Source: Octopus vulgaris
Lineage: Eukaryota
Direction of reading: 5' to 3'
DNA: 64,000 nt
Assembly: GCA_951406725.2 (NCBI GenBank)
Contig: OX597818.1
Span: 31,806,001-31,870,000, forward strand
The position numbers were made by a program, and so were the translations under genes. Shown in pieces: positions 10,828-62,343 of the stretch. Within the stretch, counting starts at the first letter, position 1, and each line of letters opens with the position of its first letter. The notes under the pieces are model-generated. The model did no database searches. It was not told the origin of the DNA and saw only the letters and a program-made list of their open reading frames with translations.

Positions 10828-11023
10828 ATGGTAATGAGCAAATTATGAAATAACGAAAGTGGCTAAACGAAGCATATATATATATATATATACATATAAA
10901 TGTATGTATATATATATATATATACATATAAATGTATGTATATATATATATATATATGTATATATATGTATATATATGCTTCGTTCAGCTACTTTCGTTA
11001 TTTCATAATTTGCTCATTACCAT
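10828..11023. repeat. Inverted repeat, ~47-bp arms (10828-10874 / 10977-11023) around a (TA)n-rich spacer
   Basis: ATGGTAATGAGCAAATTATGAAATAACGAAAGTGGCTAAACGAAGC and its reverse complement with 2 mismatches. Confidence 0.88.
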
Positions 11024-11112
11024 TTTCCTGAATCATCCATTAATCCTTATGGTAAAGACTATATACTACCAGGTAGGATTTAGCTTAACCATAAGCGATG
11101 GAATAGTCTCTA

Positions 11113-11144
11113 CTGATGAGATTTAATTCAAAGCGAAACTAGTT
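11113..11144 (+). ncRNA. Minimal hammerhead-like motif
   Basis: CTGATGA GATTT AATTC AAAGC GAAA CTAG TT: core boxes intact, stem II has one mismatch, palindromic stem III, stem I poor. Confidence 0.4.
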
Positions 11145-11308
11145 TGCTATACAGTGGCCTCGCTCCACTGGCAGTACATGGACTATGTATTTTTTGTGAC
11201 TATAAGAGTGGTTGACTCTTGTTTCTAACAATACTCTGCACCGTCGGTCACTGAACTTTACGCTTTTGATTATATATATATGTGTGTATGTGTGTGTGTG
11301 TGTGTGTC

Positions 11309-14449: not shown

Positions 14450-15010
14450 TGGAATGTATATCCTAAAATAAACTTAGAAAATCCCTGCCATGGAATACAT
14501 TCATAAACACCAAATCAAGGAATACTAGTAGAATATTCCCATCAAAACTTCTGTCAAATGTAAGCATAACAGGCCGGATATTGTTATTTGGGACAGAGGA
14601 GCAAAGGTATGTGCCTTCATAGAAGTAGCTGCCCGGCATATATAAAAATCTCTTTGAAAATCAAAGAAAAACAGTATATTTATGGACAACTGCTACGAAA
14701 CCTCCAGCTTCTATATCCAGACTATGAATTCATATTCATACCAATAATAATTGGAGCATTAGGTCTTGTTAGTAAATGCTTAAAGGAGAATCTGGATAAA
14801 CTGGGATTTTCAGAAAGAGAAATCGACCGGCTAATACATACATTACAAGTTAAATCTGTGAGTGGAACAGTAAAAATATGCAAAACTTTTCTCAAGTTAC
14901 AAATGAGAATTTGTCTGTGTTAACTACATCTCTAAAATGGAGTCTTGTATCTTTGTTGGAAACCTACTTCCTCCTCAGTGGATGATTTATAATAATTAAA
15001 AAAATAGAAG
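14450..15010 (+). mobile_element. R4/Dong-like LINE 3' fragment encoding restriction-like endonuclease (frameshifted)
   Basis: KHNRPDIVIWDRGAKVCAFIEV/SCP...KIKEKQYIYGQLLRNLQLLYPDYEFIFIPIIIGALG...SGTVKICKTFLK, a PD-(D/E)xK-type RLE C-terminus. Confidence 0.88.
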
Positions 15011-15694: not shown

Positions 15695-15930
<236 letters not shown>

Positions 15931-15931
15931 A

Positions 15932-15982
<51 letters not shown>

Positions 15983-21980: not shown

Positions 21981-22667
21981 TTCTAAATCATTAAATCTGT
22001 GGTATTAGATTTTTGGTTATAAGCTTCTTTCATTTTGCATCTGGGCGATGTTATCACCCTAAATTTGTGATTTGAGGCATATTATTTTCGCCGTCCTGTT
22101 TCGAATCCACCGCAAACAGATACTGGATTTACATATTTCTTAGATCCGAGTGTAGCTGCAATTCTTTAAATTCTTATTTTAAATTCCTCCAGTGTTTGCT
22201 CCGCCTTTCAGTATTCGGTAATCGATATCAGAAATACCAGTCAACAAACTGATTTATTCCATATTCATATTTTCAATGCATTTTCATCAGTGGATTACGT
22301 AGAGAAACACATTAAATCTCCATAAATCAGTTCTTCAAACCCGTCCAACATGCGCCTTTATCATAACATAACAGTTCTTCGTATCATTAAGTCAACAGGT
22401 TTTTAGGGATCTCCTGAGAGATAATGCATCTGGAGAGTAACATATTTATCACGTAAAGTGTCAAGCCAACAGCACAGAGTTTTACCTTGATAAATGCGCG
22501 CGCGTGTATATAGATAGATAGAGTTATGTATATATATATATATATATTAATTTATTATATAGAAGGAGCTTCTACAGGACTAGAACTGTTTCATTCAAGA
22601 GAAATCATTCAAGAGAATGTATTGAGTACCTTATTTACTGTGGTTAACCCCGAATCAACCCGGGACC

Positions 22668-22711
<44 letters not shown>

Positions 22712-22824: not shown

Positions 22825-22879
22825 AATTAGGGAATAAATATATATATACGTACATACATATATATTTATTCTTTTTTTA

Positions 22880-26366: not shown

Positions 26367-27574
26367 AGCTAAGTATCCTGAGATACCAGCTAATTAATGC
26401 AAACTGCTGTATATTGACGTTTTATACTTTAGCTTTCGTAACTCCGTTTGGTATGTAACGTAATCTAATCTAATAGTTATGCATCCAGCATATTACGAAC
26501 CTGTTATAAATGATAGATGACTGTCTGATTTTTCTGCCATCAATATACAATCTAGATAAGTCCACAATAATCTACAGTAGATGATACCAAACAATTTCTT
26601 TTGTTTTCTGAACTACTGTATTCAATAGAATTGACAAGAAATCACTGTCAAAATGATTAACATTCTGCTCACTTTATGACTGAATTCAGTACCGTTTAAG
26701 CAACCGATAAGACTTAATTAATATCTAATATACTCTCATGAATTCATAGAAGTGCTCCTGTCTGTTTTTGACTGATCCAGACAGAAAAGCAAGGCTAAGA
26801 TATATATTTGAATAATATCATGATATCATTTCCTATTCTTTCCTTTTTACCTATTTGATTATGTGAACGAAATGTCATGAACCTCTGTGGGGAAACGCAA
26901 CGTTGTCTCAAATGAGGGTGCATAGGGTAGTAAGTAGTCTGTATCATTGGCCAATCGGTCGGAGATTTTTATGTAGATTTGTTGATAGCTACCGCTTTCC
27001 TTCACCCTGATTTCTCCTTGGCAGCCAGTTGCGCTACATAGAGATATCTACAACACCCCAGCCCCGCTCCACATAAGCTGATTTGATTGATATTATACTA
27101 ATTGTGGCTGGTATGTCGATTACCTCGAATGGCGTTGTCTAGTCATAGAATCAAGTTCTGGTCAGTTTAAGTAGCCGTATAAACCAATTAATATCAATCT
27201 TTGAGAAGTCTGTATTACAACGTGGAAGGATGGGTGAACGGCTTCAAGTAAGAAGCCGGACATCGGCTGGAAATAAATAAAGAGCGTTCCACCATCTACT
27301 ACCCACATCACATACACACATTTCTATACACACACACACATATATGCAAATACATACACATATATGCATATATACACACATAACACGGACATCATCACAC
27401 ACACACACTCTCAATCTCGCCAGAGTGTGCGTGTACGAACGTACACAAGGTCTAGCGACTACATCCTCTGTGGTCGGCTCCGATAACATAATCTCTTTAG
27501 AGATCATACGGGCACTTTTATTCCCCGCCTGCCCATCAAGGCATTCTCTATCGTCCCCTGGCCTAATCGCCCTT

Positions 27575-27620
<46 letters not shown>

Positions 27621-28827
27621 GCTAAGTATCCTGAGATACCAGCTAATTAATGCAAACTGCTGTATATTGACGTTTTATACTTTAGCTTTCGTAACTCCGT
27701 TTGGTATGTAACGTAATCTAATCTAATAGTTATGCATCCAGCATATTACGAACCTGTTATAAATGATAGATGACTGTCTGATTTTTCTGCCATCAATATA
27801 CAATCTAGATAAGTCCACAATAATCTACAGTAGATGATACCAAACAATTTCTTTTGTTTTCTGAACTACTGTATTCAATAGAATTGACAAGAAATCACTG
27901 TCAAAATGATTAACATTCTGCTCACTTTATGACTGAATTCAGTACCGTTTAAGCAACCGATAAGACTTAATTAATATCTAATATACTCTCATGAATTCAT
28001 AGAAGTGCTCCTGTCTGTTTTTGACTGATCCAGACAGAAAAGCAAGGCTAAGATATATATTTGAATAATATCATGATATCATTTCCTATTCTTTCCTTTT
28101 TACCTATTTGATTATGTGAACGAAATGTCATGAACCTCTGTGGGGAAACGCAACGTTGTCTCAAATGAGGGTGCATAGGGTAGTAAGTAGTCTGTATCAT
28201 TGGCCAATCGGTCGGAGATTTTTATGTAGATTTGTTGATAGCTACCGCTTTCCTTCACCCTGATTTCTCCTTGGCAGCCAGTTGCGCTACATAGAGATAT
28301 CTACAACACCCCAGCCCCGCTCCACATAAGCTGATTTGATTGATATTATACTAATTGTGGCTGGTATGTCGATTACCTCGAATGGCGTTGTCTAGTCATA
28401 GAATCAAGTTCTGGTCAGTTTAAGTAGCCGTATAAACCAATTAATATCAATCTTTGAGAAGTCTGTATTACAACGTGGAAGGATGGGTGAACGGCTTCAA
28501 GTAAGAAGCCGGACATCGGCTGGAAATAAATAAAGAGCGTTCCACCATCTACTACCCACATCACATACACACATTTCTATACACACACACACATATATGC
28601 AAATACATACACATATATGCATATATACACACATAACACGGACATCATCACACACACACACTCTCAATCTCGCCAGAGTGTGCGTGTACGAACGTACACA
28701 AGGTCTAGCGACTACATCCTCTGTGGTCGGCTCCGATAACATAATCTCTTTAGAGATCATACGGGCACTTTTATTCCCCGCCTGCCCATCAAGGCATTCT
28801 CTATCGTCCCCTGGCCTAATCGCCCTT

Positions 28828-28872
<45 letters not shown>
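26367..28872. repeat. Direct tandem duplication, period 1253 bp (26367-27619 / 27620-28872)
   Basis: Copies read identical; ORF pairs offset by exactly 1253 (27344/28597, 27244/28497); junction at a (CT)n tract. Confidence 0.96.
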
Positions 28873-28878
<6 letters not shown>

Positions 28879-29554
28879 GTCACTATGTCGCCTTGTCCCT
28901 CTTTGTGCCGTTTGTCTTATCGCCCTTTTCTTTCTTATCCACACTTCTCTTTCTCTGTAAACCTATTCCTACGTATCGTATTACTTTCTTCAACTAACAC
29001 ACATCTACATATTCATTCGCTTTCACTTTTATTTCTCCTATACTACCCTCACTCCCCCCACAACCTGCACCACTACAACTACTACCACCAATACCAACAC
29101 TACAACTATCACCACTTATACAAACCACCACATACAACAACCATCACTACTACAGCATCTCTCCCACCGCTACCCTTGAATTTTTTTTCTTTCCTCGACT
29201 ATAAAAGAAGTCTTTACTACTTCAGACTCCACTCCTCTGGTCTACTTAATTGAGAGAACTCTTTTCGTTATTCCCCCCTCACTCTCTCTCTGCCTCTCAT
29301 TCTACCTCCCAAAGACAATCCCCCAAATCTCCCTGTCTGTCTGTCTCTCTCCCTCCACAGACACACATATAGGTATCATACACATACACCCTTTCTCCTT
29401 TTTCTGTCTGTAAGTGACAGGTTTTGCCTTTTTCTGTGCCATTTGTCCGTTCGTTATTTTTGCTATTCCTAATTTTATATCGTTCCATATGCTTCTCTTC
29501 GTCTCTAACTTCATCTCCCCCACTGCTTCCTTTTCTCACACCTTCTCTCTAATG

Positions 29555-34583: not shown

Positions 34584-34765
34584 ATATTAGGGAGTAAAAC
34601 TCCAAACTTACAGGGGAAAATTCAATTATATACTGTTTATTTATTATTATGTATTTTATTGTGATCTAGGTAAATGTTTTATCATATATTTTATTTTTTC
34701 TATATGGCGTGATTTATGCCTATCATTGTTTGAATTACATAATAGTGGTTTTTCTCTAATTTATA
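34584..34765 (+). mobile_element. Internally deleted relative of the 51098-51490 element
   Basis: ATTAGGGAGTAAAACTCCAAACTTACAGGGGAAAATTCA start; TTGTTTGAATTACATAATAGTGGTTTTTCTCTAATTTATAT end. Confidence 0.6.
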
Positions 34766-34818
34766 TATATATAATATATATATATATATATACACACACA
34801 TATGCATACATGTGTGTG

Positions 34819-39002: not shown

Positions 39003-39045
39003 GCGGACAGAGTGTTTCGAATTTATTTCGTCTCCTCAGTGACTA
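39003..39045 (-). ncRNA. Hammerhead-like motif (degenerate)
   Basis: Minus strand CTGAGGA GA CGAAATAAAT TC GAAA CA CTC TG TC; stem I not paired. Confidence 0.35.
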
Positions 39046-50676: not shown

Positions 50677-51011
50677 AAATTACGTGTATACTTATACATA
50701 TGTGTATATATTTGTATATTGTATATATTTTCGGGAGAAACGAAGGCAATGTTCCTTTGTTTATATACAAGTCATGAGTGTCTTCAAAATGTCTAAGATG
50801 ATGATAGATTAAAGTAAAATAAAGCTGAATATTTACGCTTTAATAGTTAAAAAATATTCGTCTAGCGCTTGAGTATGCTTCTGCTTCCAGTTTGCCTTTC
50901 TTCTACTTTTGCTTCTATATCAACTAAGGAACAATTCTTGTAACTAACCTGTTTATTAGTACCAATATACTATTCAGTACACTACCAAAAGCATTTCATT
51001 CACCTCCACAC

Positions 51012-51097
<86 letters not shown>

Positions 51098-51099
<2 letters not shown>

Positions 51100-51488
51100 T
51101 AAATTAGAATACCACTATATATATATATATTAAATTAGAAAATTATTTAAAAAATATAATTAATATATCACTACGACCACTAAATTAGGCAAATCATACA
51201 ATGAAAAACAATTAAGCCAATACATAAGATTATTTAATTTATATTATTTAAATATATAACAAAATTATTATAAAATATAATTAATATATCACTACGATCG
51301 TTTCATGGCTGTTAATTTCTTTAAATTTTCAAGTCCGTCATTCATCAGGTGGTTTAAATATTTATCTTGGCGAGGTTTAAACAATTTAAATTTGTCTCTA
51401 ATTTAATATAATATAATATTTTACTATAAAATTGGATTCAATCCTAAATCTGATTTTTCCCTGTAAGTTTGGATTTATTCCCTAATAT

Positions 51489-51490
<2 letters not shown>
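51098..51490 (-). mobile_element. TA-embedded non-coding element carrying a hammerhead motif; putative Penelope-like/retrozyme-like
   Basis: Minus strand begins TTAGGGAATAAATCCAAACTTACAGGG; (TA)n on both sides; relatives at 15834 and 34584. Confidence 0.65.
51288..51353 (-). ncRNA. Type I hammerhead ribozyme-like motif with palindromic stem III
   Basis: ACCAC CTGATGA ATGACGG...CAGCCAT GAAA CGATCG TA GTGAT: intact CUGAUGA/GAAA core, GUA site, stem I 4/5 paired, stem II 5/7 paired. Confidence 0.65.
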
Positions 51491-51538
<48 letters not shown>

Positions 51539-54255
51539 AATTTGTTTATGGGAAACGTTTTGAATATGCAAATAAAGCTTCTATTCCATTATACCGGCCA
51601 CAGTCTATTGATGCTGACTGGTGAACCAATCTTTGGGGGTTGCATTGAGCTGTACTGATATAATGTAGGATAAATATAATAATAATAAGAATAATAATAA
51701 TAACAACAATCCTTGGATGGAATTTATAAACATTTAAAACGTTTATAAATTCCACAAACAAAACACTTCGCTCGCTAGAAGCATGGTTTATTGTTTGTGA
51801 AATGTAACGTGTCTGGAATGGTACAATTGTGCAGAGTGGACTATAATGACTGTGAGAAATAATTTAATTATTCATATATTTCGGAATATAAAAATTTCTT
51901 CAGAGATTGCAAAGAAATAACGGAGTAACAGTTGTAGTCGGTTTTCTTATTCTTCTAACGGTTACTGAAATTTGTCGGAAGCGTTCCTGTAATGATAGTT
52001 CTTTTCGGAATTCCTCGTAAGAAGTGCGTGAGGATAGTCATGACTTGCGCTTGTTTGTGTTGGCATATTCGTAGCGCTGTTAAGCATTATATGTGCATTT
52101 TTATATAATGTCATATGAGAATGTTACCATCGTGCATGCAGGGTGTTGTTGTTGTTGTTAAATAAGATAGTGAGTGTTAATTTCCAACCTGTTGTTAATT
52201 AGGTCCTTAGTCTGTCTTTCTCCCCCAAGAAGAAAGTCTGTCTTTTGAATGCCTGTACTCACTTCTTTTCATGGCATACACATTGCGTAGAAGTCTCAAG
52301 CTTTACAAAAATATCTGAATCAAACTATGTATGATTAGTTGAGTTTACTGTGCTATGTACCACACTACATTTATACAGGAAAAATAAATAGAAGTTTTAG
52401 CTCTATGGAACAAAGTTTTCCAAACTTGACATTTCAATATCCACATTTTCATAAATATGATATAATATTCGTAAAGATATTGGCTTCTCTCTTTATGGTT
52501 TTATACGTAGTTCTTAAGTTAAAAGCTTCCTTGTTGTTTGTTCATCCTAGTAAGTATCATTCGTGATCAGTGTCCCGTTTATCAGCAACGTGACCTTCAT
52601 TAATATCTTAGTCATCGGCTGGTCGCGCGTCTTCACCACCATTTTGTAATTTAATGAGGTTTTGTTAAGTTATTGGTTAAGATAAGGCGACCTATCGAGT
52701 AAGATATGGTAAAATTATTAACAATTCATGACTGATCAGATTTGGCGAGGAAAGATACAGACGGCGGGATTTGATACCCAGTCTCCACGTACGTGTCTGT
52801 GCGTATCTAAGACTGCATATATTCATGTAAGTACGTATATACGTTTGTGTACATCTGTATGTATTATGTATGTATGAGTTTATGTATCTGTGTATGTGTG
52901 TGTGAACGTATGTGTGTGTGCGATGTGTGTGTGCGAATGTATTATGCATGTAAATAAATGACAAGGCACACTGGAAATGAATAATTGAGTCTTACTATCG
53001 CACATATGTGCGTAGAAACAACTCATACACAAACGTATACACAAACACATACACAAATAAACACGCACACACACACATATACGCACATGCTCATATATTC
53101 ACATGGATGCATAAATATATGTTTATATATCCGAATATGTGACTGTTTGTATTGGCATATATGTACATATAAGTGCACGTGTGTATATTTACGTATTTCA
53201 GCGTCCATATCATAATCCTCATCCTCTCCCAGTCAGTGTTTCGGATTTCGTGTCTGACAGAGAAACAGATGTTACACAGCCAACAGGTTATGCCCTTGGA
53301 AGACTGCAGCATCGTGTGTCTCCGGAAATTCCTTTCACGTACGTAGATATCTTTGGCTGAACTAACACCACCTGTAGTAGTATTCAATCTACACAATATA
53401 TGCATTAGATGTGGTATCCTGGTGTTTGACTCGCGTTCTTATAATATAATCTTCTCGTCTAATATATAATGAAATTGTATACAGTGCTCAGGTGCACTAC
53501 AGCTAAAAAAGGGTGGTTGGGTGGCATCAGGTGAACTGTTGGCGAATTTTAGGAAGGATAGAAATTTTGAAGGATGAAGTATCTCGACGACTAACATCTG
53601 ATGCAGGCAGTTTATTCTATACTTCAGCAATGCTGAGCGTGAAAATATGTTTCCGAAAGTCATTGGTGTAGTTTAAAAAAAAAAAATTTGTAAGCATGTC
53701 CACGAGCGTTTTGACATGTGGTATTCAAAAAGGCGCCAATAGTCAACATCTGGTGGGTTTATCAACGAAGCAGTTCAGAGACCAGCTAAAGACTACTTTG
53801 AAGGCAGAGCGGCGTCAATACTTCACAATTTACACAACGTTCGCTGTAGCAGCTTCTCAGTTCGATGAGGATTAATTGAAGATATTGAGAAATGTATGCA
53901 GAGTAACACTTGCGCTCGTCAAATCGCTTGTGAAGGGATATGTATAAAAATGAATGTACAATTATCAGAGATCTACGACTAATGGCGAAGATGACCATCA
54001 TTAGATCCGTACAACAACCATATACAAACAAAGCAATTGAGCAGATCTGTCTGAGTGTATATTCATATAGCCATACAAAAAAAAACAACTTATTTCTTAT
54101 TTTCAAACATTTTCTTGGTTCAAATTGAAAACTGATGCAGAATGTTTATCATGAAAATCATCTTGCTTTCATATTCATAACTGAAAATTTGAAACCACCA
54201 ACGCAGCCATGGTAAGGTTTCTTAATTAAACACTGACATGAATCACAAAAAGAGA

Positions 54256-61720: not shown

Positions 61721-62060
61721 TTACTCAAAATAGCCGTCCTCACCATCAGCTATGGCCTCAAAACGATTCCGGAACATGGTGCATGCGTTCTTCACTGTGT
61801 CCCTAGGAAGATGTTCGAACACCACCTTGATCTTGGCCTCTATCTTGGCTTTAGTTTTGCAGGCAGAACGGTTGGTATGCGTAAGATTAAAATTGGGGTG
61901 GAATGCGCATGCCACAAATTGTGGTTGGTGATGCAGAAATTTTCCGACGACCACTTCCAGAAGTACGGCAAGGAACCGAAACCTGCTGCTACACATATAG
62001 TCTTCCAGCGACAACACTTCCCACAGCAGTTTCAACATAGCCATCTGATGTGGGGAGGTA
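61721..62060 (-). mobile_element. Decayed Tc1/mariner (maT/DD37D-like) transposase C-terminus
   Basis: TNRSACKTKAKIEAKIKVVFEHLPRDTVKNACTMFRNRFEAIADGEDGYFE* resembles the AC..FR.R.EAV....G.Y.E end of these transposases; upstream is frameshifted. Confidence 0.75.
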
Positions 62061-62343
62061 TAATGTCACCTTACTGGAGACACAATACAAAACCAACACA
62101 AATCAGACGAACTAGATTTTCTCGTGTTACAGACTTTCAGTGTTCTCGGGGCATTGGGCAGCAGTCATGATATCGGTATTTTGATAACCAATCCAAACCA
62201 TTATCTAGTCCTCCATATTGGCTAACTTTTCATCAACTACGACATTAACCTTTATGCTATCCAGCATTAATAATTCACAAATACACCAAATCGTTCCTGA
62301 GAAAAAGAAGACAAAAAAGTCGTTAAAAGTAACAGGGATACCC

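Follow-up and report, generated by a model that had tools for sequence, protein, structure and literature searches.

A probable folded-back 3' end of a Penelope-like element with a partly decayed hammerhead motif in a (TA)n tract of Octopus vulgaris

The ~390-bp element studied here, which lies in a 64-kb stretch of Octopus vulgaris DNA (the window, meaning the whole stretch analysed), is best explained as the folded-back, truncated 3' end (pseudo-LTR, pLTR) of a Penelope-like retrotransposon (PLE), a dead-end insertion in (TA)n, and we give this reading a probability of roughly 0.75. Observed directly are the two-arm layout, seen in three window copies, the hammerhead core with its palindrome, and the very great depth that the repeat reaches in public runs. 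The features are listed below with position, strand and, in brackets, their basis.

51017-51097, no strand: left flank, a (TA)n target tract (sequence)
51098-51117, minus: additional short duplicate of the 3' end, made of TAGTGGT and end motif C (self-comparison)
51118-51390, minus: sense arm, running from a short upstream piece through the hammerhead, an AT-rich spacer, segment B and end motif C into (TA)n (sequence, contigs, relatives)
51140-51176, minus: second copy of 51297-51261, 89% over 37 nt (self-comparison)
51177-51226, minus: segment B, common to both relatives, ending in TAGTGGT (sequence comparison)
51288-51353, minus: type I hammerhead motif (read from the sequence, descriptor, folding, contig variants)
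51391-51419, plus: end motif C, inverted copy, 29 nt (self-comparison)
51420-51487, plus: 68-nt "tail", the 3' extension beyond C, ending in CCCTAATA (loose ends at 51403, 51404 and 51429; relatives)
51488-51534, no strand: right flank, a (TTA)n stutter followed by a (TA)n target tract (sequence)
15833-15935, plus: relative within (TA)n; after (TAA)n come a 23-nt inverted tail and B and C in sense orientation
34585-34777, plus: relative of a diverged subfamily within (TA)n; a 37-nt inverted tail is joined to a longer sense arm, whose end is TAGTGGT and C
22826-22839, plus: 14 nt that may be a stub of the tail's end, bordering a (TA)n tract; a chance match is possible

The minus-strand arm is likely the 5'-truncated 3' end of the element. 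The 68-nt tail was found in the inverted arm only, and a 3' extension on one side alone is present in all three window copies, although at 68 nt it is long against the published 30-40. Within the sense arm, the 37-nt repeat at 51140-51176 starts 4-5 nt before the predicted cut site and likely reflects a template jump during reverse transcription, while the short end repeat at 51098-51117 was likely left by an aborted start. The element's direct repeats are short and partial (37-58 nt), and (TA)n hides any target duplication. As had been reported from the letters alone in an earlier note on this DNA, (TA)n tracts stand on both sides, and the element carries no open reading frame: no stop-free frame of at least 100 aa overlaps it, and the longest on the minus strand is ~36 aa. 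Neither a reverse transcriptase (RT) nor a GIY-YIG domain was found by Pfam in 150 window frames, comprising 149 of the 231 complex frames of at least 55 aa and one 27-aa frame of the inverted arm. That short frame had seemed to us to resemble a GIY-YIG end; it was rejected as such, having no Pfam match and running antisense to the family. The last letters of the tail, CCCTAATA (51480-51487), which we take to hold a single telomeric repeat, TTAGGG, in reverse, are unexplained and may be chance. Further into the right flank, 51544-51665 belongs to a different multi-copy repeat with a depth of up to ~30,000 in run X1.

Each of the three clear window copies is an inverted arm placed head-to-head with a 5'-truncated sense arm, so that an inverted 5'-truncated copy at the 5' end, as expected of endonuclease-positive (EN+) PLE insertions, occurs in 3/3. 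The inverted arms measure 23, 37 and 97 nt and all derive from the same tail end, the sense starts are all different, and each of the three copies finishes at C, embedded in (TA)n; in two of them the tail end carries a (TTA)n stutter. Insertion into (TA)n, again in 3/3, is non-diagnostic, since Naiad and others share this target. The two relatives lack the hammerhead motif, as the earlier note had said, and their limits are now refined to 15833-15935 and 34585-34777. Their description as internally deleted fared less well: the "head" that they have in common corresponds, in reverse complement, to the 3' extension of the family (51420-51487), and because of this, together with the different sense starts and the head-to-head arrangement of two arms, the relatives are likely independent shorter insertions rather than internal deletions.

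The hammerhead itself reads on the minus strand at 51353-51288 exactly as first given, including a loop II of 23 nt. Its first core box, CUGAUGA, occupies 51348-51342 and the GAAA box 51304-51301; helix III is an 8-nt palindrome, ACGAUCGU (51301-51294), followed by a GUA site with the predicted cut between 51293 and 51292. The motif precedes the end of segment B by ~115 nt, near the 3' end, where the pLTR would lie. Features listed by Cervera and De la Pena (2014) for such motifs are present here, namely the CUGANGA and GAAA boxes, a UH site, and palindromic positions 15.2-16.2 with loop 3. The G10.1-C11.1 pair with an extra nucleotide between 9 and 10.1 is missing, and an A-U pair closes stem II instead. 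This counts against a "typical min-HHR" and not against a "PLE hammerhead", since U11.1 is common in motifs of the Hydra clade: by our own count in supplementary file S2 of PMC8557442, one part of that source, U precedes GAAA in 17/25 Hydra-clade hammerheads, as it does here.

The description of this copy as near-intact holds for both core boxes, the palindrome and the GUA site, and does not extend to the rest of the motif. Stem I has 3 bp and a mismatch after them, and only 5/8 positions of stem II are paired. The hammerhead fold is computed at +4.7 kcal/mol against -4.4 for the minimum free energy structure, and the single-strand folding z-scores are positive (0.52, 1.22), giving the hammerhead no support. 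A search of Rfam, proposed earlier as a check, returned two irrelevant matches and no hammerhead for 51200-51450 (251 nt) at E up to 10, and across the whole window at E up to 1 the hammerhead is absent among the 150 matches listed of 240, these being miRNA-type matches driven by microsatellites. A descriptor composed post hoc (type I, stem I of at least 3 bp, stem II of at least 3 bp, self-paired helix III) matched two sites in the 64-kb window, the motif and a core at +39158; in block-wise dinucleotide shuffles at least one match arose in 4/300 and two matches in 0. The window copy is a partly decayed hammerhead and, standing alone, would most probably be inactive.

Contigs from 4 of 24 public runs (X1, X2, X4 and X10, under the organism labels A, B and C), aligned to 50800-51800, give a view of the family beyond this copy; variants are counted from 40 of 47 variant rows and loose ends from those listed (497 more exist). 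The listed variants affect the outer part of stem I (51288, 51289), the mismatch position of stem II (51308) and its distal part (51335-51336), and loop II (51322, 51331), and among those 40 of 47 rows the core boxes and the palindrome are free of variants. An A inserted behind 51336 makes up 87-94% of the depth there in 4/4 runs and restores a U-A pair, bringing stem II to 6/8 paired positions, or to 7/8 with a second common insertion; with both, a central pair of stem II reaches a computed probability of 0.88, up from 0.002. The majority letters of the family therefore restore stem II pairs, as seen from contig variants rather than from full copies. One loose-end variant alters the free core position N7 alone (three contigs, X2). 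A case for strict conservation is weakened by three observations: the best-supported loose ends listed in X1, X2 and X4 include one that damages the first core box (two, one and one contigs), the family variants leave stem I at 3 contiguous bp, and no two-sided compensatory pair change was found among the variant rows listed for the four runs.

Summed over contigs in X1, the depth of the element runs from 47,000 to 1,084,000, against 34-50 for single low-copy contigs on the flank repeat, and X2 and X4 behave like X1. Summed contig depth is not copy number and is taken here solely as "thousands-fold": the host repeat is thousands-fold deeper than low-copy contigs, and very abundant. At the internal junction of the window copy (51386-51390) the depth is 330-1,608 in X1, 20-128 in X2 and 150-465 in X4, compared with 110,298, 14,911 and 86,836, respectively, in the bin 51344-51377. 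The junction thus lies ~70-750 times under the adjacent bin in these runs, and less than ~1/60 of the depth beside the hammerhead continues across it; depth troughs are also made by private changes of the copy (942 at 51335 in X1). Contigs that bridge 51390/51391 number two in X1 (depth 219) and one in X4, so that X1 and X4 contain the same locus, a minor subfamily or a stop point that recurs.

Joints between the sense arm and C or the tail were found at eight different place pairs among those listed, each of them shallow (4.6-119). Other contigs record the order of segments in the family: TAGTGGT-C precedes pieces that start at 51403 (eight contigs, X4) and 51404 (one, X10), letters resembling C stand before the tail at 51429 (10 contigs in X1, 11 in X2), and the end of B precedes 51391 (16 contigs in X1, 10 in X4). 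From these joins at 51391, 51403-51404 and 51429 it follows that B, C and the tail are collinear in the family. Toward the 3' end the depth mostly climbs, in X1 through 110k, 238k, 642k and 1,034k (omitting the loop-II bin of 47k), in X4 from 87k to 344k, and in X2 from 15k to 51k and then 41k, so that a rise is seen in 3/4 runs. X10 is flat; it is only guessed to be RNA, and its coverage and flat profile carry no weight for expression. With three different sense starts and a depth rising toward the 3' end, the family displays the frequent 5' truncation of EN+ PLEs.

These features can be brought together in a mechanism that rests on published PLE behaviour, for which we draw on portions of the sources cited. 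PLE insertions are described as 5'-truncated and frequently accompanied by a neighbouring truncated copy in inverted orientation (PMC8557442; PMC3846280), and by a tail of 30-40 bp at one end (PMC8557442; PMC3846280; PMC8969392); (TA)n is a target in several PLE clades, and hammerheads lie within the pLTR (PMC8557442). We suggest that the 3' end of the family RNA would run hammerhead, B, C, tail, and that the endonuclease of a full-length partner PLE would nick (TA)n. Reverse transcription would prime first at the extreme end of the RNA, in the tail, with the TTA stutter, and a second time at the TA-like motif C, which could pair with the target. Both cDNAs would stop early and join head-to-head, so that just one end carries the tail.

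In the parent RNA the hammerhead may cut tandem precursor transcripts as a dimer through its palindromic helix III. Cutting of tandem precursors by the dimer only would be consistent with the computed energies of helix III, -10.0 kcal/mol for the duplex and +2.4 for a hairpin of the monomer. Metazoan PLE hammerheads are thought to be dimeric and cleave poorly in vitro (PMC4209133, in part). The template behind the repeat at 51140-51176 would have been uncut, since the repeat begins upstream of the cut. Self-priming on an antisense template has been proposed instead of double priming (PMC3846280, in the portion used here); the present data do not separate the two.

Attribution to a Penelope-derived element with a dimer-type hammerhead is supported by the form of the motif, the (TA)n target, the copy level and the inverted arm with its tail, while a non-autonomous family does not follow from the missing ORF, since a 5'-truncated insertion of an autonomous PLE would look alike. 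A non-autonomous PLE-derived unit (SINE-like or solo-pLTR) with a fixed 5' end, amplified in trans and giving rise to the short relatives by deletion, could account for the absence of an ORF, the very high depth, the few contigs that bridge the junction in X1, X2 and X4, and the lack of a common upstream continuation among the loose ends listed; mobilisation of pLTR-only copies in trans has been reported in a rotifer (PMC3846280, in part). We nevertheless consider it unlikely: the depth of the junction is 70-750 times below that of the neighbouring bin, the listed joints are numerous and each shallow, none of them an amplified deletion form, and the "head" is the reverse complement of the 3' extension. 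A bolder version, in which a short, protein-free and hammerhead-bearing PLE parasite propagates itself through copying in trans into (TA)n, reaching tens of thousands of sites and carrying an unusually long 68-nt tail that closes with the presumed reverse telomeric repeat, strikes us as rather doubtful.

Two readings place the element outside this frame. As the monomer of a non-LTR retrozyme, a tandem family spreading via circular RNA, it would have a suitable size (~390 bp, where mussel retrozymes measure 350-390 bp; PMC7229834, in part), low GC and a type I hammerhead; solo monomers are known (bioRxiv 10.64898/2026.07.22.740005, in part), the partial repeat has its start close to the cut site, and within a few nucleotides of a copy of that site lie two X1 joints, each from a single contig (51173-51404 and 51290-51423). 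These joints can also be explained by TA/TAGT microhomology, and the partial repeat, in keeping the 4-5 nt upstream of the cut, indicates a template uncut there. With a single core, no full tandem unit and only a partial repeat of 37-58 nt, the tandem arrangement of a retrozyme is absent here. Non-LTR retrozymes, in the portions of the same two sources used, are like the element in being short, non-coding, low in GC and PLE-related with a type I hammerhead, and differ from it in their tandem units; an inverted arm with a one-sided tail is foreign to them, and we hold this origin to be most improbable. A MITE-like fold-back DNA element in (TA)n, carrying a hammerhead-like string by chance, is a very unlikely source as well. 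The inverted motif C near both ends, the weak folding without an Rfam match and the post hoc descriptor would suit it, but the ends are made asymmetric by the 68-nt tail, terminal inverted repeats are absent, the family letters improve stem II, and the chance rate of the descriptor is 4/300 windows. We return, then, to the folded-back, truncated PLE 3' end as the preferred explanation.

Several other features of the window were recorded alongside. Two hammerhead-like cores at 39039 (minus) and 39158 (plus) lie ~120 nt apart and head-to-head, of which +39158 passes the descriptor, and the pair probably represents the fold-back stump of a different PLE family. At ~10830-11022 a palindrome centred on (TA)n stands next to a CUGAUGA...GAAA core at +11113 (window 10830-11270) whose helix III is palindromic and which failed the descriptor, and another, unrelated insert within (TA)n occupies 22549-22672. 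The frame at 14570-14920 encodes a C-terminal fragment of a retroelement protein with nine homologues at 52-58% identity, two of them with an RT domain, and likely comes from a non-LTR element. Translated stretches at 27244-27625 and 28497-28916, ~1.25 kb apart, are identical and represent a recent local duplication or an assembly artefact. The frame at 61721-62065, which we presume to resemble the end of a Tc1/mariner transposase, has no Pfam match, and no tRNA gene was found in the 64-kb window. Outside the window, searches of viral contigs and of prokaryote genome contigs each gave 0 matches, and an 18-nt pattern recovered 16 loci in metagenome contigs that were rejected as family members and attributed to chance, because the matches span only 18-24 nt at 39-60% GC with no upstream core.

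As a single family the element is ordinary, many animals carrying PLE hammerheads in thousands of lone copies. Its interest lies in the mechanism of PLE integration and the role of the hammerhead, both treated as still open in the discussions of PMC8557442 and PMC3846280: with its very high copy level, sharp boundary between C and tail, and diverse junctions, the family would lend itself to junction statistics around the cut site. Were the protein-free parasite real, its stumps, numbering thousands, two-armed and each with a junction of its own, would directly test the origin of the inverted end and tail of PLEs, by two-strand priming or antisense self-priming, and whether the hammerhead cut fixes the point of truncation. 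This family was not found described in the literature searched. It may well be catalogued already, in Repbase, Dfam or the O. vulgaris repeat library, given that coleoids are rich in PLEs (PMC13282606; PMC8967140) and that O. vulgaris has 31 recently active PLE families (PMC13282606), as stated in the portions of these sources used.

Among known systems, likewise compared through portions of the publications cited, the insertion units of EN+ PLEs (PMC8557442; PMC3846280) are the closest in layout: they have in common with the window copies a head-to-head inverted arm, a tail on one arm, staggered truncation, and a microsatellite target that masks any target duplication. They differ in that the tail here is 68 and not 30-40 nt, no ORF is seen and there is no direct tandem pLTR. 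The element would on this comparison work like the 3' end of an endonuclease-positive PLE, known here from its 3' sequence alone. PLEs of the Hydra clade (PMC8557442) resemble it in their (TA)n target, in a hammerhead near the 3' end and in the U before GAAA; their helix III mostly has a loop of 1-3 nt, and the clade is defined by RT and EN, where only 3' sequence is available here. Hydra-1_Obim of Octopus bimaculoides was considered and rejected, as its hammerhead sequence in file S2 differs, and nine short family motifs found 0 places in the supplement of PMC8557442. With the PLE hammerheads of Drosophila, rotifer, shrimp and mosquito and the metazoan min-HHRs (PMC4209133), the motif has in common its type I form, a short helix I, a long mismatched helix II, a palindromic helix III suited to dimers, and thousands of lone copies per genome. 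It departs from them in having A10.1-U11.1 for G10.1-C11.1, a 23-nt loop II and no clear extra nucleotide after A9, while its perfect palindrome brings it nearer to the Drosophila, rotifer and shrimp type than to the Hydra clade.
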